A stretch of 64,000 nt of DNA, from positions 2,886 through 66,885 of the forward strand of contig JBARRO010000048.1 in the NCBI GenBank assembly GCA_049644265.1, read 5' to 3'. The stretch is from Bacteroidota bacterium. Lineage in GTDB: Bacteria; Bacteroidota; Ignavibacteria; UBA10030. The notes below the pieces were generated by a model. It was not told the DNA's origin. It ran no database searches and saw nothing but the letters and a program-made list of their open reading frames with translations. This document shows, piece after piece, positions 30,397 through 61,157 of this stretch (positions within the stretch are counted from its first letter, which is position 1; every line of letters starts with the position of its first letter). Both the position numbers and the translations under genes were made by a program.

Positions 30397-32154
30397 TTGA
30401 ACCTACAGGTCATTGTTGCTACTGTCATTAATGGGTGCCTTGCACACGGCTCGTCAAAATGCTATATTGACACGGTTCGAGGAGCCACGTATCACTTTTC
30501 GGAAACCTTCCCCATGACCTGGATCGACTACAAGGACCTCAACATCACCGATGGAGCATTTAGTCGGTTATTCCTCGACTATATCGGCGATTACCAAAAG
30601 GTTCAGAAATTCTACGGCGGCAACTTCCGGGATGAGAGCGCCTGGCGCTCCGTGCTGGAAAAAGTCTCAAATCGTGCGATGGATCGCGGGCCGATCGTCC
30701 AGATCCTCTCCAACCAGAACCGCAATTTCCAGTGCGGCATCAAGACTTTGGCGAATATCGACCTCCTGTTGAACGACAACACCGTTGCCGTCGTCACGGG
30801 ACAACAGGTCGGCCTCTTTACGGGTCCCCTCTATACCATCTACAAAACCCTGACGGCGATCAAACTCGCGGAGCAGATCAATGCAAAGTACCAGGACTAT
30901 CACGCTGTGCCGGTGTTCTGGCTGGAGGGCGAGGATCACGACTACGAAGAAGTGACCAGGATTAATTTGATTAATGGATCGAACGATCTGGTTCATATCG
31001 AATATCCTCTTGAAGCGAAGAGAGAAAAGAAGAACGTCGGGGCGGTCGGGAAAATTGAATTTACGGACTCGATCAACGACCTTTTCGGAGCGATCGATCA
31101 GACGCTCATCCAGACGGAGTTCAAGCCGAAGGTTTTGGACCTCTTCAAAACAGCGTATCAGAAGGGAATGACCTTCAACAAAGCCTTTGTGCATTTGATG
31201 AATGTTCTGGTTGAAGACTCGGGATTAATCTTTTTCGACCCGAACGATCCCGATGCCAAGAAACTCGTAGCTCCCATTTTCCAACGGGAGATCACGGATA
31301 CGCCGAAGATCGGACAGCTCGTGATCGACCAAAGTGTAGAGCTCGAAAACATTTACCATGCACAGGTGAAGCCCCGCTCGATCAACCTTTTCCTTTTTCA
31401 TGGAGGCGGACGGTATCCCATCGAGCCCCACCCAGACGGCTACTCACTAAAAGGAACCCGCCAGCATATCACGAAGGAAGAGATGAGCGGATTTCTTAAG
31501 AATTCGCCCGAGCTGTTCAGTCCGAATGTTGTGCTCAGACCGATATGTCAGGACTGGCTCCTCCCCACCGCCGCCTACGTAGCAGGACCCTCGGAAGTCG
31601 CTTATTTTGCGCAATTCCGGCCGTTGTACGAAGAATTCAACATACCCGAGCCAATCATTTATCCGCGGGCAAGTGTGACAATACTTGAAGAAAAGGTGGA
31701 GAAAGTGTTGACCCGGTTTGCATTGCAGGTCACACAGTTTTTTGAGGATGTGGAGTTTCTGAAGCAGAAGATCGCGGTGCAGATTTCGGATTTCAAAGTC
31801 GATGAACTCTTCGCCAGCACCAACGGCGCCATCGAAGAATCTTTGAACAGTTTGCGAAGCGGGATGCAGACCATCGATCCAACCCTTATGGGAGCGCTCG
31901 ACAACACACTCGGAAAGATCAAATCCCAGATCGATGTGTTGAAAGAGAAGACCCTTGCTGCGCAGAAGCGTCAGCACGAAGTCTACCTGCGTCAAATCGA
32001 CAAGGCAGCAATTTTCCTGTTTCCGAACTCAAACTTCCAGGAGCGCGAGCTGAACGTGCTGTATTTCTTGAATAAGTATGGATTGGAATTTGTGCGATGG
32101 CTGAATAATGAGATAGAGATTGATAAGTTTAAGCATCAGGTGGTGAAATTGTAG
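30397..32154 (+). CDS. bshC: Bacillithiol biosynthesis cysteine-adding enzyme BshC
   Basis: VVTGQQVGLFTGPLYTIYKTLTAIKLAEQ...VPVFWLEGEDHDYEEV closely matches the B. subtilis BshC/YllA signature as recalled. True start probably MTWIDYKDL (~30514), preceded by a TTGACA-N17-TATCAC promoter-like element. Confidence 0.85.
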   Translation: MNLQVIVATVINGCLAHGSSKCYIDTVRGATYHFSETFPMTWIDYKDLNITDGAFSRLFLDYIGDYQKVQKFYGGNFRDESAWRSVLEKVSNRAMDRGPIVQILSNQNRNFQCGIKTLANIDLLLNDNTVAVVTGQQVGLFTGPLYTIYKTLTAIKLAEQINAKYQDYHAVPVFWLEGEDHDYEEVTRINLINGSNDLVHIEYPLEAKREKKNVGAVGKIEFTDSINDLFGAIDQTLIQTEFKPKVLDLFKTAYQKGMTFNKAFVHLMNVLVEDSGLIFFDPNDPDAKKLVAPIFQREITDTPKIGQLVIDQSVELENIYHAQVKPRSINLFLFHGGGRYPIEPHPDGYSLKGTRQHITKEEMSGFLKNSPELFSPNVVLRPICQDWLLPTAAYVAGPSEVAYFAQFRPLYEEFNIPEPIIYPRASVTILEEKVEKVLTRFALQVTQFFEDVEFLKQKIAVQISDFKVDELFASTNGAIEESLNSLRSGMQTIDPTLMGALDNTLGKIKSQIDVLKEKTLAAQKRQHEVYLRQIDKAAIFLFPNSNFQERELNVLYFLNKYGLEFVRWLNNEIEIDKFKHQVVKL

Positions 32155-32367
32155 GTTGTCGATTGTAGATTGTCGATTGTAGATTGTAGATCGAGATGGA
32201 ACAGTTGAAAGTTGTAAGTTGAAAGTTAAGAGTTCCGAGTTGTGAGTTTAGAGTTTCCAGTTTTGCATGTTTCACTATTCACGATTTACGATTCACTATC
32301 TACGGTTTACTTTTCACCTTTCACTTTTCGCTTCTCTAGCTCCTTCACCTGCCCTAAGATCTCGCAT
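32155..32367 (+). repeat. Array of 30 in-phase degenerate heptanucleotide repeats (intercistronic bshC to ICMT)
   Basis: From 32155, unbroken 7-nt phasing: gttgtcg attgtag x4 ... gttgaaa gttgtaa gttgaaa gttaaga gttccga gttgtga gtttaga gtttcca gttttgc ... actattc acgattt acgattc actatct acggttt acttttc acctttc acttttc ... ending 1 nt before the ATG at 32366. First half lacks C, second half is G-poor. Confidence 0.85.
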
Positions 32368-32803
32368 GGACTCCATCGTTGCATCAAGAATCGGTCTGGT
32401 CGTTGCCGTTGCAAGCATGGTGACTCTTGTTTTCCGGCAATCGATCTTCGGTGTCGGGGCGGTAGCGATAGGCGTACAAATTGCAGCGGCGATTCTCATG
32501 CTTTGGGCCCGTCTTACGTTTGGCGGACGGAGTTTTCATGCATCGGCAGATCCCACAGAAGGTGGTTTGGTTACGTCGGGACCGTATCGATACCTACGCC
32601 ATCCGATTTATGCGTCCATAATGTATTTCCTGTGGGCCGCTGCATTGTCTCACTTCTCCGTTTTGAACACTCTCCTTGCAGTCGCCGCAACATCCGGCCT
32701 CCTTTTGCGCATGTATGCTGAAGAGCGGTTGGTCGTGGAACGATATCCCGAGTACAGTTCTTACGCTGCCCGCACCAAACGCATTGTTCCGTTTGTTTTC
32801 TGA
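32267..32803 (+). CDS. Isoprenylcysteine carboxyl methyltransferase (ICMT/PEMT) family membrane methyltransferase
   Basis: Likely start MDSIVAS (ATG 32366). C-terminal GPYRYLRHPIY...RMYAEERLV motif diagnostic of the ICMT family. The upstream part of the listed ORF is the repeat array, not coding. Confidence 0.7.
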   Translation: MFHYSRFTIHYLRFTFHLSLFASLAPSPALRSRMDSIVASRIGLVVAVASMVTLVFRQSIFGVGAVAIGVQIAAAILMLWARLTFGGRSFHASADPTEGGLVTSGPYRYLRHPIYASIMYFLWAAALSHFSVLNTLLAVAATSGLLLRMYAEERLVVERYPEYSSYAARTKRIVPFVF

Positions 32804-38996: not shown

Positions 38997-41594
38997 TTAT
39001 TCAAGCTTGCGTTTTGTCTCAACCGTATGATAGGCCTCGATAACGTCGCCCACCTTCAAGTCGTTGTAGTTTTCGAGCCCAAGGCCGCATTCGAAGCCCT
39101 GCTCCACTTCGCGGACATCGTCCTTGAACCGTTTGAGCGAAGCCAGCGTACCGTCGAACACGACAACGCCGTCTCGAACCAGTCGGACGCGATTGTTCCT
39201 CGTGATTTTGCCATCCCTGACGTAACAACCCGCGATGGTACCAACCTTTGAAATTTTGAATATGTCCCGCACGTCCACCGTCGCCAGCACCTCCTCGGAC
39301 ACGGTCGGCGCAAGCATACCTTCCAGGGCGTTCTTCACTTCGTTGATTGCGTCGTAGATGATGCTGTACAACCGGATGTCGATGTCCTCGAGCTGAGCAA
39401 GTTGCCGCGCCTTGAGGTTCGGTCGCACATGGAATCCAATGATGACTGCCTGCGACGCGACAGCAAGGAGAACGTCGGACTCTGAAATTCCTCCGACGCC
39501 CTTGTGAATAACCTGCACCTTCACTTCATTCGTCGACAGCTTCATGAGTGAATCGGAAAGTGCTTCGGCGGACCCGTCGACGTCTGCTTTGACGATGACC
39601 GGGAGGTCGCGTACCTGGCCTTCTTTGATCTGCTTTGAGATGTCGTCGAGCGTGACACGCCGGCTCTGGCGGAAATCCTGCTCACGTTTGAGTTGCTGCC
39701 GTCGGAAGGATATATCCCGCGCCTCGCGCTCGTCTTTGAGGACGACGAATGCATCGCCGGCCTGAGGGATTCCGTCAAACCCAATCACCTGCACCGGCTG
39801 GGACGGGTGGGCGACTTCAATACGCTGGCCCCGTTCGTCGAACATGGCTCGTACTCTTCCGCTCCAGACTCCCGTGACAAACGAATCGCCGATTCTCAGG
39901 GTTCCTTTCTGCACAAGAACTGTTGCCGTAATACCCTTGCCTTTATCCAGTTCTGCTTCGACCACCACGCCACGAGCTTCCCTGTTCGGATTGGCTTTCA
40001 GGTCCAACACTTCCGCTTCAAGGAGGATCTTCTCAAGCAACTGGTCCACATTCTTTCCGGTTTTTGCCGAGAGCGACACGACCTGAGATTTGCCGCCGTA
40101 CTCTTCGACGAGAAGTCCTTTTTCGGCCAGCTGCTGCTTAATGCGGTCCGGGTTTGCTTCGGGCTTGTCAATCTTGTTGATTGCCACGACAATTGGAACG
40201 CCGGCGGCCTGTGCGTGACTGATCGCCTCGACCGTTTGCGGCATGACACTGTCATCTGCAGCAACAACCAGGACGACGATGTCCGTCACCTGTGCGCCGC
40301 GGGCACGCATGGCAGTAAACGCCTCGTGGCCGGGAGTATCGAGAAACGTGATGTGCTTGCTGCCGTCCAGCGTGACCTCGTACGCGCCGATGTGCTGCGT
40401 GATGCCGCCGGATTCGCCGGCAACCACGTTGGCACTGCGAATATAGTCGAGGAGAGAGGTTTTCCCGTGGTCGACATGTCCCATGATGGTGACAACCGGG
40501 GGACGCGTGACCAGCGAGGTTTCGTCGTCGGGAATGTCCTGGAGGACATCAGCCGTGAACTCGTGTTCAAAATCGACCTGGAATCCGAATTCGTCGGCGA
40601 CGAGCGTAATCGTGTCTTTGTCAAGGCGCTGGTTGATGGAAACCATGACGCCGAGGCCCATGATCTTCTGGATGACTTCCGCCACAGAAACACGCATGAG
40701 GTTGGCGAGCTCGCCGACCGTGACAAACTCCGTGACTTTGACTCTCGTCCGATCGCGCTCGATCTGATCGAGGATCTTCTGCTGCTCCTCTTCGCGTTTC
40801 TCTTTCTTCCGCTTGCGAATTGCCGCGCGAGAGGTGACTGCTTCGTCACTGGATTCCGCCAGCGTTTCGCGGATCGCCTTTGCGACCTCCACCTCATTCA
40901 CCTCAGCCCGACGGACCTTTTTCCGCTTGCGCCCCTTCGCCTCTTCCTCATCCTCTGTCTTCGCGGGAGCAACTTTGACCTTTTTGGTGTCTTCCCGAAG
41001 CTTCTTTTTCTTCTTTTTCTTCTTCTTCTCTTCTTCCGATTCCGTTGCTGCGGCCGTCGGGGAGGTCAGCTCCATCTTCCCCTTGATCGTCAATCCCCTC
41101 TGCGCGCGCGCGACTGCGGCCTCCAACGGCGATTGCGGCCCACGACGTGCCGCCGGTTTTTCTTCCTTTTTGATTTCGACCGGTTTCGGCTCGGAAGCCG
41201 GAACCGCGGGCGCTTCCGTCGGCGGAGCCACAGGTAGCTGTGCCGCCTCAACGGGAGCAGCCTCTACCGTAGGCGCGGCAACCGGAATTTCTTCGACCGG
41301 TTCGGCCTCTTCGACCTTTACGGGTTCCTCTTCTTTGACCGCTTTCTTTTCGACCTTTTCGGGAGTTTCCTTCTTGCGGGTCGAACGGAATTCCTGAAGC
41401 TTCTTGTGGTGACGTTCCGCGACGTCCTTTTCCTTTTTGAAGTGACTGTTGATGGCGTGGACCATATCATCGGTCACCGCGCTCATGTGGTTCTTCACTT
41501 CAAACCCCTTTTTCTTCAGGAACTCGAGAATCGTTTCGCTCGAGAGGTTGAGTTCCTTCGCAAGGTTATAGATTTTGACTTTCTTTTCGGTCAT
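38997..41594 (-). CDS. infB: Translation initiation factor IF-2
   Basis: 865 aa. Charged low-complexity N-terminus with a poly-Lys tract, GTPase domain ([12 protein letters not shown] ... DTPGHEAF ... NKID) and C-terminal beta-barrels. The + ORF 39693..41237 is an antisense shadow. Confidence 0.95.
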
Positions 41595-43667: not shown

Positions 43668-44384
43668 TCAGAAGTTCATCACCACCGTTTGCTTCTTGTA
43701 GAAGTCGGCCACAAATTGGGCCGCTTCGACCGGATCGTCCGTGAGATGGAACAGATTGACGTCTTCCGGGGAAATCATTTTTGTTTTCAGAACCGTGGTC
43801 TTGATCCAGTCCACGAGCCCTTGCCAATATTCCACACCCATCAGGATGACGGGGAACGGTTTGGTTTTGTTTGTTTGGATCAACGTAATGGCTTCGAAGA
43901 ATTCGTCAAGAGTACCGAAACCGCCAGGGAGTACGACAAACCCGTGGGCATATTTCACGAACATCACCTTCCGGACAAAGAAGTGATTGAAGTAGAGGCT
44001 CCGGTCCTTATCGACAAACGCGTTCGAGCCCTGCTCGTGCGGGAGGACGATGTTTGCCCCCACGGACGCTCCTCCCTGCTTCTTCGCGCCCTTATTGCCC
44101 GCCTCCATGATTCCCGGCCCCCCACCCGTGAGAACATTGAATCCATGCTTCACGAGTTCCGTCGCAACCTGAACAGCCATTTCATAGTATTTTGACCCCG
44201 GCCGTACTCGCGCCGATCCAAAAATGGTTACCAGGCTTTTCTGCTTGGACATCATCGTGAACCCATCTACAAACTCCGCCATAATCCGGAAGACTCTCCA
44301 GATATCCTGTTGAGTGCTCAGCAGATCGTTAAGGAGCATGTCCTGTTTTTGATCATGCATCGAACGCTGGATCGGTTTTTTCAT
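43668..44384 (-). CDS. LOG-family cytokinin riboside 5'-monophosphate phosphoribohydrolase / Rossmann-fold nucleotide-binding protein
   Basis: GGGPGIMEA and [12 protein letters not shown] motifs of the TIGR00730/LOG family. Confidence 0.8.
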
Positions 44385-44971
44385 AGTAATCCCCTGGTTG
44401 GTATAATCATGAGAAAGTTTTTTAAGATCTTCTTTCCATGTTCGGTTGCTATGGATTCGGGATGAAACTGCACCCCGAATGTGGGAAACTCCCGATGTCG
44501 CACCGCCATAATCGTGCCGTCCTCAGTCCACGCAGTGACTTCAAGCTCTTTCGGCAACGACTCTTTTTCGACAATCAACGAATGGTACCGCGCGGCGGTA
44601 AAGGGAGAGGGAATGTCCCGAAAGAGGCCGGATTCACCATGGAAGATCGGCGATGTTTTTCCGTGATAGATCTTCGAGGCCCGCACAATTTTACCGCCGA
44701 ACGCCTCTCCGACCGATTGATGGCCAAGACATACTCCGAGAATCGGGACTCCCTTGTGGAGCCTCTTCACAACTTCCACAGAAACTCCTGCCTCGTTCGG
44801 AGTGCACGGCCCCGGCGAAATCACGATTCCATCCGGCTTCATCTCGATGATCTCATCGACTGTCATGGCGTCATTGCGGGCGACGGTCTGCTCCACTCCC
44901 AGCTCACCCAGATACTGGACGAGGTTGTACGTGAAGGAATCATAGTTGTCGATGACGAGGAGCATGGTCAA
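44381..44971 (-). CDS. trpG: Glutamine amidotransferase component of anthranilate / aminodeoxychorismate synthase
   Basis: Class I GATase triad (GVCLGHQ ... HPES). Real start probably the ATG at 44965 ([15 protein letters not shown]), not the listed TTG. Confidence 0.8.
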
Positions 44972-45099
44972 TTGGTCAATTCAACAAATGAACAATGAGC
45001 AATGTGAGAAGAACAGTAAGCAGTTGTCAGTAGACAGTACCAGGAAAAACACGAGGAGCGAGGAATCTGTAACTGACAACTGGAAACTCGAAACTTCTC
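44966..45099 (-). repeat. Array of ~17 in-phase degenerate heptanucleotide repeats (intercistronic trpE to trpG)
   Basis: Plus-strand phasing atgaaca atgagca atgtgag aagaaca gtaagca gttgtca gtagaca gtaccag ... atctgta actgaca actggaa actcgaa acttctc. The transcribed (minus) strand is G-depleted upstream of the trpG start. Confidence 0.8.
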
Positions 45100-46590
45100 T
45101 TAATGTATTAACCGCTCAAGGGCGTTCAGATTCGCTCCCAGTTTTTCCAGCGTTTCCTCGTACTCCCGTTCCGGCCTGGAGTCGAACACGATTCCGGCGC
45201 CTGCCTGGAAGTAGAGGGTATCGCCTTTTGCGACGATGGTGCGGATGGCGATGCAGGAGTCGAGGTTTCCTGAAAAATCGATGTAGCCTACGGCGCCGCC
45301 GTAGATTCCCCGTTTGACGGGCTCGAGTTCTGCGATGATTTGCATTGCCCGGATCTTCGGAGCTCCGCTCAAGGTTCCGGCCGGAAAGCAGGCGTACAGT
45401 GCATCGATCGCGCACATCTCTTTCCGAAGCTTTCCCTGGATATTGGAAACAATGTGCATGACGTGGGAGTAGCGCTCTATGGTCATAAACTGCGTTACCG
45501 AGACGCTGCCGAACTCGCTGATTCTTCCAAGGTCGTTCCGCCCCAGGTCCACGAGCATGAGGTGTTCAGCACGTTCCTTTTCGTCCGCCAGAAGTTCCTG
45601 TTCGAGTTTAAGGTCCTCCGTTGGACTTTCACCACGGCGTCTCGTTCCTGCGATCGGACGCGTCTCCACTGTCCCCTGCTCCACACGCACGAGCATCTCG
45701 GGCGAGGATCCGATGACCGAGAAGTCGTTTAAACCAAGGTAATACATGTAGGGCGATGGGTTGATCAGCCGAAGGGATCGGTACAGATCGAACGGAGTCA
45801 CACGCGCTTTTCGTTTCAGCCGCTGCGAAACGACGATCTGGAATGCATCCCCGGCAGCGATATACTCCTTCGACCGTTCGACACTCCTGCAATACTGCTG
45901 CTTTGACATCACATGCTCGAGCGCTCCGTCGGGTTTTGCGGCATGGAGCTCCAGCGAGACCTGCTTCGCGAGGATATTCTTGAGTCGCGCAATTTCTTTC
46001 GCGGCTTTGTCGTATTCGCGGCGCAGCGTTTCCACAGAAGGATTGGCGTCGGGAAGATATGCATTCGAAACCAGGAAGAGCTCGTGTCTCACGTTGTCAA
46101 AAATGACAACCGTGTCACAGAACATGAGGAGGCCGTCGGGAACATTCAGCTCATCCTTTCCTGTTGTGGGAATGTCTTCGATGAGCTGCACCGTCTCGTA
46201 TCCGAAGTATCCGATTGCTCCACCTGTGAGTCTCGGCAGGCCCTGCTCCTGGACTGTCTTGAAGTGTGCAAAGATCTTCCTGAGCGCATCCAGCGGATGA
46301 TCTTCCTTCTGTACAAGCCGTGGAAGGATTTCGACATCCTCGTGAAAGGATTCAAGAGAGAACTTTTTTCCCTCGATGCGAAAGATCATGAAGGGGTCGA
46401 AACCGAGGAAGGAATACCGTCCGAGCTTCTCTCCCCCTTCGACGCTTTCCAGAAGGAAGGAATAGGGGGATTCCGGCTGGAGCTTCAGGTAAACCGAAAC
46501 GGGAGTCTCGGTATCTGCGAGCAGTGTGTCGTACACAGGAATGACGTTGCCGAGCGCCGAGAGCCTCGTGAATTCTTCAAAGGATGTCAT
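45100..46590 (-). CDS. trpE: Anthranilate synthase component I (or aminodeoxychorismate synthase PabB)
   Basis: 496 aa chorismate-binding enzyme (LLESVEGGEKLGRYSF; C-terminal GAGIVFDS). No trpDCBA downstream, so PabB cannot be excluded. Confidence 0.75.
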   Translation of the reverse strand: MTSFEEFTRLSALGNVIPVYDTLLADTETPVSVYLKLQPESPYSFLLESVEGGEKLGRYSFLGFDPFMIFRIEGKKFSLESFHEDVEILPRLVQKEDHPLDALRKIFAHFKTVQEQGLPRLTGGAIGYFGYETVQLIEDIPTTGKDELNVPDGLLMFCDTVVIFDNVRHELFLVSNAYLPDANPSVETLRREYDKAAKEIARLKNILAKQVSLELHAAKPDGALEHVMSKQQYCRSVERSKEYIAAGDAFQIVVSQRLKRKARVTPFDLYRSLRLINPSPYMYYLGLNDFSVIGSSPEMLVRVEQGTVETRPIAGTRRRGESPTEDLKLEQELLADEKERAEHLMLVDLGRNDLGRISEFGSVSVTQFMTIERYSHVMHIVSNIQGKLRKEMCAIDALYACFPAGTLSGAPKIRAMQIIAELEPVKRGIYGGAVGYIDFSGNLDSCIAIRTIVAKGDTLYFQAGAGIVFDSRPEREYEETLEKLGANLNALERLIH

Positions 46591-57249: not shown

Positions 57250-58748
57250 CACTACGGACATTCACGACGACTGCATTTCTGGCGTTCCTGCTTGTTGTTG
57301 ACACGCCGCCAAGTTCCGCGCAATACAACAGCTTCAACCAGCGCGACGACAAGTATCGCCTGCTCGGGCTCAAGCGCGCAAAGGAATACTATGAGCTGGC
57401 GAAGAAAGAGTTCGACCGTCAAAAAAATCTCTTCGACAAGGGCCTTGTTTCGCAAGTTGAGATTGACCGTTCCAAGAACGCACTCGCCGACGCCGAAGTG
57501 AACTACCAACAATCCCTGCTCGCCGTGCTCTTCGAACAACAGTATGTATCCATTGACAATGCCGTGAAATACCAGGCATCCAACGGTTCCAAGCGTGTCA
57601 GACTTACGCTGAAAAATGCATCGGGAGGCGGCGAGGAATTTCAAAAACTCCTCGGCATCGAGGACAAACTGTTTCGTTCTCTTCAGCCGGACCTGATTCA
57701 GAATGTCTACGTTTCCCTCTACAACAGCGAGGGCGCAATCATCTCCCAGCCGTATGAGGCAAAGATCGAACAACTGAAGTCCGGCGAGCCACGAAAGATC
57801 GACTTTACGCTCCTGCAGGACCTGGACGCCGTGACGGTCAATATTATTTATGGGAATGGAACAAGCCGGACTCTGAAAATCCTCCTGCAGAAAGACAATA
57901 CCGTCAACAGGGTGCTGCTGCAGTCGCAACAGTTCTCCCAGGAGGCCGAGCTGGGCACGTCTGCAACGTTTGACCTCACGCTTGAGCTCTTCAGCGGCGT
58001 GGACAACACTTTTAGTCTCGAAGTGGTCAACCTCCCCCGCCAGATCAATCGATTCTTCAAGGACATTACAACGGGAGCCCGTCTTTCGCAGATCAAATTC
58101 ACGGAGAGTTCCAGTTCGAAGAAAGCGGGGTTGGAAGTTTCGTTGCCGGATCGGCCGACAGATCAGGTGGCCATGGACAAACCCATCGCGTTTTTTGCGC
58201 TGGTGGTCCCCACCGACCGGGGCGACGAGTTCCGTTCAATCCAGGAAAAGAGCTGGACCGAGGATGAGATCAAAAAATTGCATGTGGGATATGTCCGTCT
58301 CGAGCTCATGCCCCGTGGCCAGGGAAGGCTCCTTGTTCGGGCACCCCAACTTTACTACGCTATCAAGCCTGACGGCAGTGTCGAGATGACGGTGGACGCC
58401 GTGAACGAGGGAACGCGGAGGCTGGATAACGTCAGAATGGATGTGGACGTGCCCCTCAATTGGACCAAACGCATCAGTCCCGACGTGATTCCGGCACTCG
58501 ACATCAATCAGGAGAAACGCATCACGGTGACCGCTGTTCCTCCTCCGGGAATCGCCGTGGGCCGGTATGAGCTGCGTCTCCGCACAAGCGGCCTTTCGGA
58601 CAACAAGCCCGTCAACGCGGAAGACAAAACGGTGACTGTCGAGATCCAGGCAGAAGCAAGCGTGATTGGGACGATCCTTCTTGTGTTGACGATCCTTGGG
58701 CTTGTTTCGGGCCTGGTCGTGTTCGGGGTAAAGCTCTCAAAGCGGTAA
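57246..58748 (+). CDS. Secreted beta-rich protein with N-terminal coiled coil and C-terminal TM anchor (ABC-module accessory, hypothetical)
   Basis: Signal peptide. Adaptor-like coiled coil (LVSQVEIDRSKNALADAEVNYQQS). About 380 aa of beta-rich sequence with Ig-like/NEW3-like character. Hydrophobic C-terminal helix. Confidence 0.3.
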   Translation: MTLRTFTTTAFLAFLLVVDTPPSSAQYNSFNQRDDKYRLLGLKRAKEYYELAKKEFDRQKNLFDKGLVSQVEIDRSKNALADAEVNYQQSLLAVLFEQQYVSIDNAVKYQASNGSKRVRLTLKNASGGGEEFQKLLGIEDKLFRSLQPDLIQNVYVSLYNSEGAIISQPYEAKIEQLKSGEPRKIDFTLLQDLDAVTVNIIYGNGTSRTLKILLQKDNTVNRVLLQSQQFSQEAELGTSATFDLTLELFSGVDNTFSLEVVNLPRQINRFFKDITTGARLSQIKFTESSSSKKAGLEVSLPDRPTDQVAMDKPIAFFALVVPTDRGDEFRSIQEKSWTEDEIKKLHVGYVRLELMPRGQGRLLVRAPQLYYAIKPDGSVEMTVDAVNEGTRRLDNVRMDVDVPLNWTKRISPDVIPALDINQEKRITVTAVPPPGIAVGRYELRLRTSGLSDNKPVNAEDKTVTVEIQAEASVIGTILLVLTILGLVSGLVVFGVKLSKR

Positions 58749-58880
58749 TAACACTTGGTTCTTGGATACAGGACGTTGGGTGTTGGAAATTGGAAAGATG
58801 AACCATTCAAAGTCCAATGACCAATATTCAATAGTCAATATCCAATTCCCAATAATCAACGTGACCTAAAGGAGCCATTT
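58749..58880 (+). repeat. Array of 18 in-phase degenerate heptanucleotide repeats (intercistronic, upstream of the ABC ATPase)
   Basis: cacttgg ttcttgg atacagg acgttgg gtgttgg aaattgg aaagatg aaccatt caaagtc caatgac caatatt caatagt caatatc caattcc caataat caacgtg acctaaa ggagcca then ttt ATG. The distal half is NNNNTGG, the proximal half CAATNNN, G-poor. Confidence 0.85.
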
Positions 58881-59615
58881 ATGCAGCCAACTCCCATGTT
58901 TGAAGCCGTGAATCTCACCAAGAGGTATGAGGACGGCGTGCTTGCACTCGATCGTGTTTCGTTCCGTGTCGATCGCGGAGAGATCTACGCGATGCTTGGC
59001 GCGAACGGAGCCGGAAAGACGACCGCCATCAACATCTTCCTGAACCTGATCGAGCCGACCGAAGGAGAAGCACGTATCGATGGTGTCGCGACACATAAAG
59101 AGCCGCTGGTGGCAAAAAAGAATGTCGCATACGTTTCAGAAAACGTCATGCTGTATCCGAGCTTTACCGCGATTCAGAACCTCGATTATTTCGCAAGACT
59201 CGGTGGAAAAACCCAGTATACCCGGGAGGATTACCGAAAGGTCCTGCGGCGCGTCGGTTTGCAGGAGGAGGCGCACACGAAGAGACTCAAGGGATTCTCC
59301 AAGGGAATGAGGCAAAAATGCGGAATTGCCATAGCGATCCTTAAAGATGCTCCGGCCATTCTCCTCGATGAACCCACATCGGGGCTTGACCCTCAGGCGG
59401 CTTACGAATTCCAACGCCTCCTTGAGTCCCTCCGCGACGAAGGCAAATCGATTATCATGTCCACCCATGACATCTTTCGCGCCAAAGAAGTCGCGGATAC
59501 TGTCGGTATCATGAGCAAAGGAAGACTCGTCATGCAGAAATCTTCGGCCGAGCTGCAAGGAAAGGACCTTGAACAGGTATATATGAAACATATGGCGGGA
59601 CATGGAGAGGAGTAG
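58881..59615 (+). CDS. ABC transporter ATP-binding protein
   Basis: Walker A GANGAGKTT, signature FSKGMRQK, Walker B ILLDEPTSGLD, H-loop. Confidence 0.9.
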   Translation: MQPTPMFEAVNLTKRYEDGVLALDRVSFRVDRGEIYAMLGANGAGKTTAINIFLNLIEPTEGEARIDGVATHKEPLVAKKNVAYVSENVMLYPSFTAIQNLDYFARLGGKTQYTREDYRKVLRRVGLQEEAHTKRLKGFSKGMRQKCGIAIAILKDAPAILLDEPTSGLDPQAAYEFQRLLESLRDEGKSIIMSTHDIFRAKEVADTVGIMSKGRLVMQKSSAELQGKDLEQVYMKHMAGHGEE

Positions 59616-59744
59616 AGGAGTAATGGAGTAGATGAGTAGTGGAGTAGGTGCGTTTATGAGTCGATGAGTCTGTGAGTCTATAAGTCAATGAGTAACAGGG
59701 CAAACTGCTAACTGGAAACTGAAAACTGACAACTGGCAACTCCT
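59616..59744 (+). repeat. Array of 18 in-phase degenerate heptanucleotide repeats (intercistronic ATPase to permease)
   Basis: ggagtaa tggagta gatgagt agtggag taggtgc gtttatg agtcgat gagtctg tgagtct ataagtc aatgagt aacaggg caaactg ctaactg gaaactg aaaactg acaactg gcaactc then ct ATG. Shares the aactgacaactgg(a/c)aact motif with the trpE-trpG array. Confidence 0.85.
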
Positions 59745-61157
59745 ATGATCAAACTCATCATTGAAAAAGAGCTCCGGGAGATTATCGGATCGACGAAGTT
59801 TGCGGTGACGTTTGGGGTTTCGTCTATTCTCATTATTCTCTCGTTTTATGTCGGTGGCAGGAATTATCAGATCGGGACGGAACAGTACGAATCGTCGAAA
59901 CGCGAGGATTTCAGGAAGATGGAAGGAATCACTGACTGGAATGAAGTCCGCGACCACCGGGTCTTCCTTCCCCCTCAGCCTGTCGCGTCTCTCGTGATGG
60001 GGGTCTCAAACGACATCGGCCGGACCATGGAAATACACGGACGAGGCGAGCTGACTGCCGAAGACAGCAGGTATGGCGATGACCCGATTTATGCGGTCTT
60101 CCGGTTTCTGGATCTCGATTTCATCTTTCAAATTGTCCTTTCCCTCTTTGCCATTCTGTTTGCGTACGACGCCATAAATGGGGAAAAGGAGCGCGGGACG
60201 CTTCGACTCACATTTGCCAATCCGGTTCCGCGCGGCTCGTACATCCTTGGCAAAATGCTCGGATCGCTCTTCGGCCTTGCCCTTCCCCTTCTCATTCCCA
60301 TTCTGATCGGGTCGACGGTCCTGCTTCTCATGAAGATACCCCTTCAGACGCCGGATTGGGTGCGTCTGGCTCTCGTCGTGGCCTGTGGATTTCTGTACTT
60401 TGGCGCGTTTTTGGCGCTCTCCCTGTTCATTTCTTCCCTAACGGAGAGATCCTCACATTCCTTTCTCCTCCTGCTCATTATCTGGATTCTCTCAGTCATG
60501 GTTGTCCCCAGAATCGCTGTGTTACTCGCAGGAAGGGCCATCGACGTCCCGAGTGTCGATGAGCTCGGTTCGAAGAAATCCCGATACGCCGCTTCGCTCT
60601 GGCAGGAGGATCGGAAGAAAATGGCGGATTTCAAGTCGACTCCCGGCGTCCCTGCCAATGAAGTGCTCAAGGGTTTCCAAAAGTTCATGTCGCAGATGGG
60701 CGATGAAAGGGAAAAGAAGATTCAGGAATTCGGCAGACAACTGAACGAGAACAGGACGAACAAGCAACGTCTTCAGGAGGACCTGGCGTTTGGACTCTCC
60801 ATGGTCTCCCCTTCCGCAGTCTTTTCCCTGGCATCAACCACGATTTCGGGTACCGGCCTGCGGCTCGCGAACAACTTTCAGCACGAGGCCGAAACGTACC
60901 AAACGTCGTACGGAGAGTTCATGAAGGAGAAAACCGGAATGAATCCCGGCGGCGGCATGGTGTTCCGCATTTCCACGGACAACGATACAAAGAAAGACCC
61001 TGTGAACCTGAATGAGCTTCCTGTATTCGAGTTCCGCAGGGAACCCCTTCGGGCTGTCCTGGGGTCCATCGCGTTGGACTTTGGAATCCTGGCTCTCTTC
61101 AATATTCTGTTCTTCGCCGGGGCGTTTATCTCGTTCCTTCGCTACGATGTCCGTTGA
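59745..61157 (+). CDS. ABC-2 family transporter permease (paralog 1)
   Basis: 470 aa. N-terminal TM, large extracytoplasmic/charged insert, ABC-2 core (DDPIYAVFRFLDLDF ... C-terminal FLRYDVR). Confidence 0.65.
   Translation: MIKLIIEKELREIIGSTKFAVTFGVSSILIILSFYVGGRNYQIGTEQYESSKREDFRKMEGITDWNEVRDHRVFLPPQPVASLVMGVSNDIGRTMEIHGRGELTAEDSRYGDDPIYAVFRFLDLDFIFQIVLSLFAILFAYDAINGEKERGTLRLTFANPVPRGSYILGKMLGSLFGLALPLLIPILIGSTVLLLMKIPLQTPDWVRLALVVACGFLYFGAFLALSLFISSLTERSSHSFLLLLIIWILSVMVVPRIAVLLAGRAIDVPSVDELGSKKSRYAASLWQEDRKKMADFKSTPGVPANEVLKGFQKFMSQMGDEREKKIQEFGRQLNENRTNKQRLQEDLAFGLSMVSPSAVFSLASTTISGTGLRLANNFQHEAETYQTSYGEFMKEKTGMNPGGGMVFRISTDNDTKKDPVNLNELPVFEFRREPLRAVLGSIALDFGILALFNILFFAGAFISFLRYDVR

Follow-up and report, generated by a model that had tools for sequence, protein, structure and literature searches.

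A degenerate heptamer array with two inverted arms in the trpE–trpG junction of an Ignavibacteria-like Bacteroidota genome

A stretch of 64,000 nucleotides from a Bacteroidota bacterium of Ignavibacteria lineage (contig JBARRO010000048.1 of assembly GCA_049644265.1, here termed the window) carries the genes trpE and trpG, separated by a spacer of 134 nt that consists of degenerate 7-nt repeats. The spacer (44966–45099, minus strand) contains 19 heptads in one phase, and these are arranged in two reverse-complementary arms that are predicted to pair into a long imperfect hairpin. It belongs to an already described, fast-evolving kind of bacterial heptamer repeat and does not represent a new system. 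By comparison with the same junction in related genomes, the array is a lineage-specific insertion at a formerly coupled trpE–trpG junction. It probably began as a slippage-born heptamer array that grew, together with an inverted copy of itself, between a stop and a start codon, with a net effect that would be near neutral or mildly modulatory.

The heptad array and its predicted fold

The gene upstream of the array in the direction of transcription, trpE (45100–46590, minus strand), encodes anthranilate synthase component I of 496 amino acids, with Pfam matches to Chorismate_bind (4.7e-99) and Anth_synt_I_N (4e-41). Its translation matches the NCBI protein 'MAG: anthranilate synthase component I [Bacteroidota bacterium]' at 100% identity, where MAG stands for metagenome-assembled genome. 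The downstream gene, trpG (44381–44965, minus strand), encodes a class-I glutamine amidotransferase of 194 amino acids (Pfam GATase, 3.3e-65), and its start was fixed by alignment to relatives. The TAA stop codon of trpE (45100–45102) abuts the array without a gap, and the ATG of trpG is at 44963–44965. The repeats thus fill the entire intercistronic gap, as had been proposed in a sequence-only reading of the window, and the heptad sequence quoted there is present as given.

The in-phase register described in that reading is borne out by the identity between positions a fixed number of nucleotides apart. At lag 7 the identity across the spacer is 0.480, compared with 0.225–0.282 at lags 1–6; at lag 14 it is 0.358 and at lag 21 it is 0.327. 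In 5000 shuffled sequences the value of 0.48 is never reached, whether at lag 7 or over the range of lags 4–21. Segments of 70 nt scanned across the whole window have a mean lag-7 identity of 0.252 (sd 0.06), and values above 0.5 are found in four regions only: 32101–32379, 44953–45123, 58718–58888 and 59658–59788. The second of these is the trp spacer. The spacer is identical in an independent Logan assembly (L081). Chance and assembly artefact are ruled out as explanations by the shuffles, the window scan and this identical copy.

The head-to-tail 7-nt units, which extend over a length greater than expected by chance, place the spacer among the long simple-sequence repeats. It is not a near-perfect simple-sequence repeat (SSR), as neighbouring heptads agree at only about half of their positions. 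Tandem Repeats Finder misses the heptads because the units are too degenerate; within the spacer it calls only an 8-nt unit that is present twice (44965–44981). The G + C content is ∼0.41, compared with 0.53 for the window.

On the plus strand, CAGT-type heptads come first and ACTG-type heptads follow, and the two sets are reverse complements of each other. The 5′ arm of the mRNA (45067–45099, minus strand) begins on the first base past the trpE stop codon. It reads GAGAAGU UUCGAGU UUCCAGU UGUCAGU UACAG, that is, heptads of xAGU type that are ACTG-type on the plus strand. A central region of 23 nt (45044–45066, minus strand) forms the hairpin loop and contains a heptad twice (UCCUCGC UCCUCGU in the mRNA, ACGAGGA GCGAGGA on the plus strand). 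The 3′ arm (45012–45043, minus strand) reads CUGG UACUGUC UACUGAC AACUGCU UACUGUU in the mRNA; these are ACUG-type heptads, CAGT-type on the plus strand. The arms are joined by a perfect inverted repeat of 11 nt, CAGTTGTCAGT at 45021–45031 and ACTGACAACTG at 45072–45082.

RNA folding predicts an imperfect hairpin of 94 nt (45006–45099, minus strand), which is more stable than the folds of shuffled sequences. Its predicted structure consists of a base formed by GAGAAG/CUUCUC, a step of 3 bp, the perfect stem of 11 bp and an extension of 4 bp. The 134-nt spacer RNA of the minus strand has a folding energy of −36.9 kcal/mol (z = −3.91), and none of 200 shuffles is equally stable. With the flanking sequences included, z is −3.45. 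The opposite strand folds nearly as well (z = −2.45). As G runs of three or longer are absent from the spacer, the idea of a G-quadruplex is not applicable here.

Between the predicted hairpin and the AUG of trpG there is a leader of 40 nt (44966–45005, minus strand) that is G-poor and U-rich and has no Shine–Dalgarno (SD) sequence. In the mRNA it is made up of CAUUG-type heptads followed by two copies of UUGACCAA, and its predicted folding is limited to a small, weak hairpin. Seen on the plus strand, two 8-nt units of sequence GGTCAATT occupy 44966–44981 and are followed by CAATG-type heptads. The depletion of G on the mRNA strand upstream of trpG, which the sequence-only reading had also pointed out, is evident in the final 60 nt ahead of the AUG, where there are 8 G (13%) and 25 T residues.

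Within the spacer there is no sigma-70-type promoter, no intrinsic terminator and no Bacteroidetes-type TTTG...TAnnTTTG promoter box. As this motif is not enriched in the window as a whole, an internal promoter of unknown type is possible. Rfam 15 gives no match at gathering thresholds in the whole window and none up to E = 5 in the segment 44850–45250. Past the LOG-family gene downstream of trpG there is a terminator-like hairpin (43548–43527, minus strand).

The location of the array directly upstream of trpG, together with the regularly spaced GAG/CAG triplets in the 5′ arm of the mRNA, might indicate a tryptophan-specific site, either an array of (G/U)AG triplets for a TRAP-like protein ahead of trpG or a leader/attenuator. 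The spacing of 7 nt, however, differs from the TRAP period of 5–6 nt, there is no Rfam match to T-box or trp-leader families, and the spacer has no leader open reading frame (ORF) carrying Trp codons. In addition, syntenic relatives have no array, and like arrays are present at bshC and ABC-transporter junctions, which are unrelated to tryptophan (see below). This explanation is given next to no credence, and is rejected because of the wrong period and the like arrays at non-trp junctions.

The junction in relatives and the sister arrays of the window

Matches to the window TrpE vary in identity with the source. The best among species-representative genomes is at 54%, JGI metagenomes provide one at 64%, and the protein database provides matches at 70–72% and one at 87%. 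The next relatives are named as Bacteroidota, Ignavibacteriae or Ignavibacteriales. The window was compared with seven syntenic loci that come from six relatives among the Ignavibacteria/Bacteroidota and have TrpE identities of 64–72%; two of these loci, L165 and L166, represent the same protein from two samples. Gene order is kept as thioesterase–trpE–trpG–(LOG)–rimP–nusA–infB.

The trpE–trpG gap in these loci is −4 nt in L082 (an ATGA overlap), 0 nt in each of L165 and L166, 3 nt in L162, 6 nt in L164 and also in L167, and 19 nt in L168. None of them has the array. Since each of the seven junctions is either overlapping or nearly abutting, the array is an insertion into a once-coupled junction, which is the outcome that the sequence-only reading had suggested a comparison of relatives might yield. 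No obvious SD sequence is present at the trpE–trpG junction among the syntenic relatives, and SD-less initiation or re-initiation therefore seems to be normal for the lineage.

Several other features of this gene string may be noted. The window junctions upstream of trpE are tight; the thioesterase gene and trpE overlap by 4 nt (46587–46590) and the figure for the beta-eliminating-lyase and thioesterase genes is 1 nt (47048). The trpE–trpG junction is the sole opened junction of the string. A gene of the LOG family, or 'possible lysine decarboxylase' (PF03641; 43668–44384, minus strand), is situated between trpG and rimP, and its start is overlapped by the trpG stop by 4 nt. This gene is found in relatives L165 and L168 and is missing from L162, L164 and L167. 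Further along, an ORF of 865 amino acids on the minus strand (38997–41594), which is IF-2 by synteny with L162, contains a (CTT)12 tract at 41001–41036 that forms an AAG (Lys) run on the coding strand.

The trp spacer is not the only array in the window. On a crude gene map with 29 intergenic gaps of at least 40 nt, four gaps are periodic, and all four are between co-directional genes. One array, detected by the periodicity scan (32148–32365, plus strand; the gap itself is 32155–32365), separates bshC from a PEMT/ICMT-like methyltransferase gene. Its motif drifts from ATTGTAG to AGTTGAA and then to CACTATT/TACGATT, and the first ATTGTAG unit includes the bshC stop codon TAG (32152–32154). The sequence-only reading regarded this array and the trp spacer as having the same architecture. 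They are of the same kind, and both are among the four regions with lag-7 identity above 0.5; the 32155 array, however, has a z of about 0 and folds no better than shuffles, unlike the trp spacer.

The other two sister arrays flank an ABC ATPase gene. The first, between a gene with an NPCBM_assoc domain and the ATPase gene (58749–58880, plus strand), consists of TTGG heptads, CCAA heptads and then an SD sequence; this two-arm array has a predicted hairpin with z = −3.59. The second, between the ATPase gene and an ABC-2 permease gene (59606–59744, plus strand; the gap is 59616–59744), opens with GGAGTAG/TAGTGGAG units of period 8 that begin in the last part of the ATPase ORF, at its 3′ end, and provide the stop codon. 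Its second part is composed of AACTG units of period 7, five in number (59702–59741), which end 3 nt ahead of the permease ATG. There is no significant fold (z = +1.26). A hairpin as a property common to all four arrays was considered and rejected, as the 32155 and 59616 arrays fold no better than shuffles.

All four arrays are low in G + C (0.38–0.43, compared with the 0.53 of the window), and in every one the first part is G/U-rich and the second part is C/A-rich and G-poor. Core motifs differ from array to array (CAGT, TTGG, GGAGTAG and ATTGTAG). Heptads of AACTG type are nevertheless found in three of the four; the pattern AACTGNNAACTG, with up to one mismatch, has 12 matches in the window compared with 3.1 expected, and 11 of the 12 are in arrays. 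The exact heptamer TAACTGA is present in two copies, compared with 3.1 expected. The similarity of the trp spacer to two of the other arrays covers 18–19 nt and is at the heptad level only. Tandem Repeats Finder detects super-periods of 14 and 21 nt in sister arrays.

A palindromic, intergenic and lineage-specific sequence could also represent a miniature mobile element of the REP/BIME, REPIN or MITE type that was inserted between trpE and trpG. Blastn-short searches, however, found no second full-length copy in the 64-kb window or in 1.7 Mb of fetched loci, both related and unrelated, where matches are limited to 13–19 nt, and a MITE/REP element was rejected on this basis. Neither conserved termini nor a target-site duplication is seen. 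Inside, the spacer is built of tandem units whose motif drifts, and not of a unique sequence between terminal inverted repeats, and the arrays of the window carry different core motifs. An origin by transposition of such an element is considered highly improbable.

The two arrays that flank the ATPase gene differ among close relatives. At the NPCBM_assoc–ATPase junction, the window has an array in a gap of 132 nt. The gap is 87 nt in a relative at 95% protein identity; at 93% (L170, 1–209) it is 47 nt, has an SD sequence and is without the array; relatives at 81% have 190 nt with weak periodicity only (lag-7 identity 0.34). At the ATPase–permease junction, where the window has an array in a gap of 129 nt, the gap of the 95% relative is 272 nt. 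The 93% relative (L170, 939–1112) opens with the same TAGTGGAG-type 8-mers and diverges after these. In the 81% relatives the gap is 62 nt, with an SD sequence and no array. The gap lengths and sequences are those of arrays that are gained, lost and resized over a short evolutionary scale. This lability is seen at both distances, in that the trp array is absent at 64–72% identity and the sister arrays differ at 93–95% identity.

Occurrence in other phyla and probable origin

A cross-phylum set of 165 fetched loci (1.7 Mb) was assembled around distant TrpE homologues from many phyla. In 124 of these loci trpE is directly followed by trpG; the gap is 20 nt or less in 70 and 61–200 nt in 33. Where the trpE–trpG spacer measures 60–300 nt, 11 of 37 are strongly period-7 (lag-7 identity of at least 0.42), and others are period-8. 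Arrays of this style are present in the trpE–trpG spacers of Nitrospira (L069, 5464–5570, and L054), Poribacteria (L029 and L035) and Methylomirabilis/NC10 (L017 and L019). Two arms of 7- or 8-nt units, the G-rich one first, are seen at this junction in L017, L019 and L069 as well as in L007, L094, L115 (2048–2134), L129 (2782–2885) and L107; the spacer of L107 (11442–11528) consists of four copies of CGGGTAA followed by four of GTTACCC.

Among the 165 loci, 235 heptad arms were detected, and 46 pairs of arms are adjacent. Adjacent arms are reverse-complementary at five or more of the seven consensus positions in 27 of the 46 pairs, compared with 10.5% among random pairs. Arrays of period 7 or 8 make up 51 of 549 gaps of 50–400 nt (∼9%) and are present in all three orientation classes. 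Restriction to operon-internal gaps was considered and rejected, as co-directional gaps display a weak trend only (11% vs 6%, p = 0.066). The folding energy per nucleotide is −0.33 kcal/mol/nt for periodic spacers and −0.24 for non-periodic ones. The sense strand is more stable than the antisense in 15 of 22 periodic spacers, which is not significant (p = 0.095).

Two of the fetched loci display arrays at other positions. In a Nitrospira MAG (L041, 3677–3981), two heptad arrays with AGTT/AACT and other units lie on the two sides of a putative tRNA gene, recognised by eye, on the opposite strand. In a Thiotrichaceae MAG (L075, 190–253), the repeat TAACTGA TAACAGT GTACTGA TAACTGA CAACTAA TAACTGA CAACTGA ends 1 nt ahead of the ATG of trpE. 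It follows the published Beggiatoaceae pattern and has a 13-mer in common with the trp spacer.

Replication slippage together with inverted duplication is the most likely origin of the array. A 7-nt unit would have been amplified locally through slipped-strand replication, with the copies diverging afterwards, and an inverted copy of the array, formed for example by fold-back template switching, would then have produced the two reverse-complementary arms. The decay of heptad similarity with distance (0.48, 0.36 and 0.33 at one, two and three units) is more in keeping with local duplication in steps than with a fixed motif. The repeats would be transcribed within a trpE–trpG–LOG message and, by their presence on it, would remove the stop–start coupling seen in relatives. 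The message is predicted to fold into the 94-nt hairpin from the first base past the trpE stop, and trpG would be initiated de novo from the 40-nt SD-less leader. The net effect is probably near neutral or mildly modulatory, for example by cistron insulation or an influence on mRNA stability.

Three observations weigh against a near-neutral product of slippage. The G-rich arm is ahead of the C-rich arm in 22 of the 27 inverted pairs of the cross-phylum set; such polarity is not predicted by plain slippage and hints at selection. Periodic gaps are somewhat commoner between co-directional genes, by the percentages given above. Two of the four window arrays form predicted hairpins clearly above shuffles, which pure drift would not maintain. 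In the closest relative, with 87% TrpE identity, the contig ends 0–160 nt past the trpE stop; this distance was computed from two gene tables, in which no trpG call is listed. The contig end is compatible with an assembly break in the repeat, although this is no proof of it.

The main alternative is a selected post-transcriptional element. The heptads might provide multivalent sites for a single-strand RNA-binding protein of the cold-shock-domain, S1 or CsrA-like type, or the hairpin itself might serve to insulate the cistrons, to direct processing or to mask a Rho-loading site that tunes the TrpE:TrpG ratio. Consistent with this are the excess of AACTG-type heptads (AACTGNNAACTG) in three of the four arrays, the AACTG units of the 59616 array, which stop 3 nt before an ATG as in the pattern of PMC4679880 and in L075, the z of −3.9 for the trp hairpin, the polarity of the 22 arm pairs and the occurrence of two-arm period-7/8 arrays in trpE–trpG spacers of many phyla. 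On the other hand, the sequences are unconserved, with arrays absent or different at 93–95% identity, and the core motif varies by array. Two of the four arrays fold no better than shuffles, the stability of sense strands is not significantly above that of antisense strands, the exact TAACTGA is not enriched, and no candidate binding protein is identified. Selection for such an element at this locus is judged unlikely.

A broader proposal is that operon-internal 'repeat-arm hairpins' with units of 7 or 8 nt form an unnamed class that extends across phyla and is selected for RNA-level insulation or regulation; as a whole this is thought distinctly unlikely. Under this proposal, the arm directly past the upstream stop would be G-rich, and its complement, rich in C/A and poor in G, would lead to the downstream start. 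Such hairpins may have repeatedly replaced stop–start coupling, as in the trpE–trpG junctions of Ignavibacteria-like, Nitrospira, NC10/Methylomirabilis, Poribacteria and other MAGs. Possible roles are hairpin pairing in multiple registers, a mask over a C-rich site for the loading of Rho or a protein, and control of re-initiation. If true, the fixed G-then-C polarity would be a signature of selection on the hairpins.

The G-then-C order is invariant under reverse complementation, and the two strands of the trp spacer fold about equally well. Both properties would suit an action at the level of DNA, through a cruciform, a slipped-strand structure or phased protein sites, three heptads being 21 bp, close to two turns of the helix. 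The consequences could be more recombination or rearrangement, or a modulation of transcription. The super-periods of 14 and 21 nt in sister arrays are in keeping with this, and roles of non-B DNA are discussed for Xanthomonas and Nostoc heptamers (Rehm et al., 2015; PMC4692102). The synteny with relatives is, however, intact on either side of the array, there is no known binding protein, and the absence of G-runs removes one of the candidate structures. A DNA-level function is regarded as quite improbable.

With slippage and inverted duplication as the probable origin, the locus represents a self-expanding repeat that has parted two subunit genes of one enzyme by 134 nt, with both genes kept. 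Translation of trpG in this lineage would then depend on independent, SD-less initiation. Heptamer arrays have so far been reported piecemeal, from Cyanobacteria, Xanthomonas, Beggiatoaceae and a few Bacteroidetes. The 7- or 8-nt unit, the arm polarity and the frequency at operon junctions of uncultured phyla are matters of the whole class and not of this locus in particular. The predictions of a neutral origin by slippage differ from those of an RNA element under selection, and both sets are testable. The arrays also have a practical consequence, as they escape both Tandem Repeats Finder and Rfam and probably break short-read assemblies. The contig end in the 87% TrpE relative might be an example, and another sign of such breaks is the ABC ATPase gene of a further close relative, which is on a contig of just 1112 nt.

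Comparison with known repeat families

Resemblance to several well-known families is partial. TRAP sites of Bacillus, upstream of trpG/pabA, consist of 9–11 (G/U)AG triplets with spacers of 2–3 nt and thus a period of 5–6. They are similar to the trp spacer in that a short RNA motif is repeated directly upstream of trpG, and differ in that the spacer has period 7 and is of a kind that is not trp-specific. The REP/BIME, REPIN and MITE sequences are families of near-identical copies mobilised by transposase; REP hairpins can stabilise upstream mRNA and are often found inside operons. The trp spacer is likewise intergenic and hairpin-forming, but its arms are tandem arrays, and full-length copies are not found in the 64 kb of the window or the 1.7 Mb of loci.

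The cyanobacterial STRR heptanucleotides of Calothrix and Nostoc (CCCCAGT, TTGGTCA and CAACAGT) form near-perfect, high-copy families spread genome-wide. Likenesses to the trp spacer are the intergenic 7-nt tandem units, the heptads of NNCAGTN type and the presence of TTGGTCA within the 8-nt unit that adjoins the trpG ATG. The units of the trp spacer differ in being degenerate, and are seen here in one 64-kb window. Calothrix heptanucleotides are also mentioned by Rehm et al. (2015; PMC4692102). A 2007 survey by Mrazek, in the form in which it is cited in PMC4679880 and PMC4692102, ranks heptanucleotides as the most abundant long simple-sequence repeats of prokaryotes.

TAACTGA direct repeats have been described in Beggiatoaceae, Cyanobacteria and five Bacteroidetes (MacGregor, 2015; PMC4679880). 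They precede start codons at a short distance, within gaps of which most have no SD sequence, and units may extend into the 3′ end of the preceding ORF. For the Bacteroidetes, the nearest relatives keep the neighbouring genes, but the gap between them is shorter and carries no repeats. Proteins suggested to bind the repeats are S1, cold-shock and CsrA-like proteins (MacGregor, 2015). The trp spacer is related to this family by the units TAACTGA CAACTGG AAACTCG, that is, (T/C/A)AACTG(A/G/C), and the 59702 array is related to it by five AACTG units that end 3 nt ahead of an ATG. The trp spacer has a single exact TAACTGA (45070–45076) followed by related units, and does not have two or more exact tandem copies. 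Its arms differ from the TAACTGA repeats in being inverted and predicted to pair. The forward ACUG arm stops 40 nt before the trpG AUG rather than 1 nt before it, and trpG is SD-less; the 59702–59741 array is the one with a near-start, forward orientation without an SD sequence. Strict membership in the TAACTGA family was rejected, since TAACTGA itself shows no enrichment in the 64 kb.

The closest parallel in architecture is found in Xanthomonas, where each genome has ∼185 intergenic arrays of GGGAATC/(GGGANTN)n, and in 70–75 cases per genome two nearby arrays are convergent on opposite strands (Rehm et al., 2015; PMC4692102). Nostoc has intergenic heptamers of GGGGA(C/T)T. The length and sequence of the heptamer arrays vary widely among close relatives, and polymerase slippage has been proposed as the cause (Rehm et al., 2015). 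As in the trp spacer, the arrays are intergenic, are built of 7-nt units that may be perfect or heterogeneous, and combine a conserved core with variable positions. A further resemblance of the convergent pairs to the trp spacer is that the two arms are inverted and the G-rich one comes first; the order of the arms in the spacer, G > C and then C > G, was judged from its sequence. The spacer differs from the Xanthomonas arrays in its host, an Ignavibacteria-like Bacteroidota MAG, and in its CAGT/ACTG core, which is without the GGG or GGGG tracts of the Xanthomonas type and so falls outside the subclass able to form G-quadruplexes, the structure at the centre of that paper; its units are also more degenerate, with a motif that drifts along the array. 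It fits the 'heterogeneous' class of (GGGANTN)n type (Rehm et al., 2015; PMC4692102) rather than that of the perfect SSRs.

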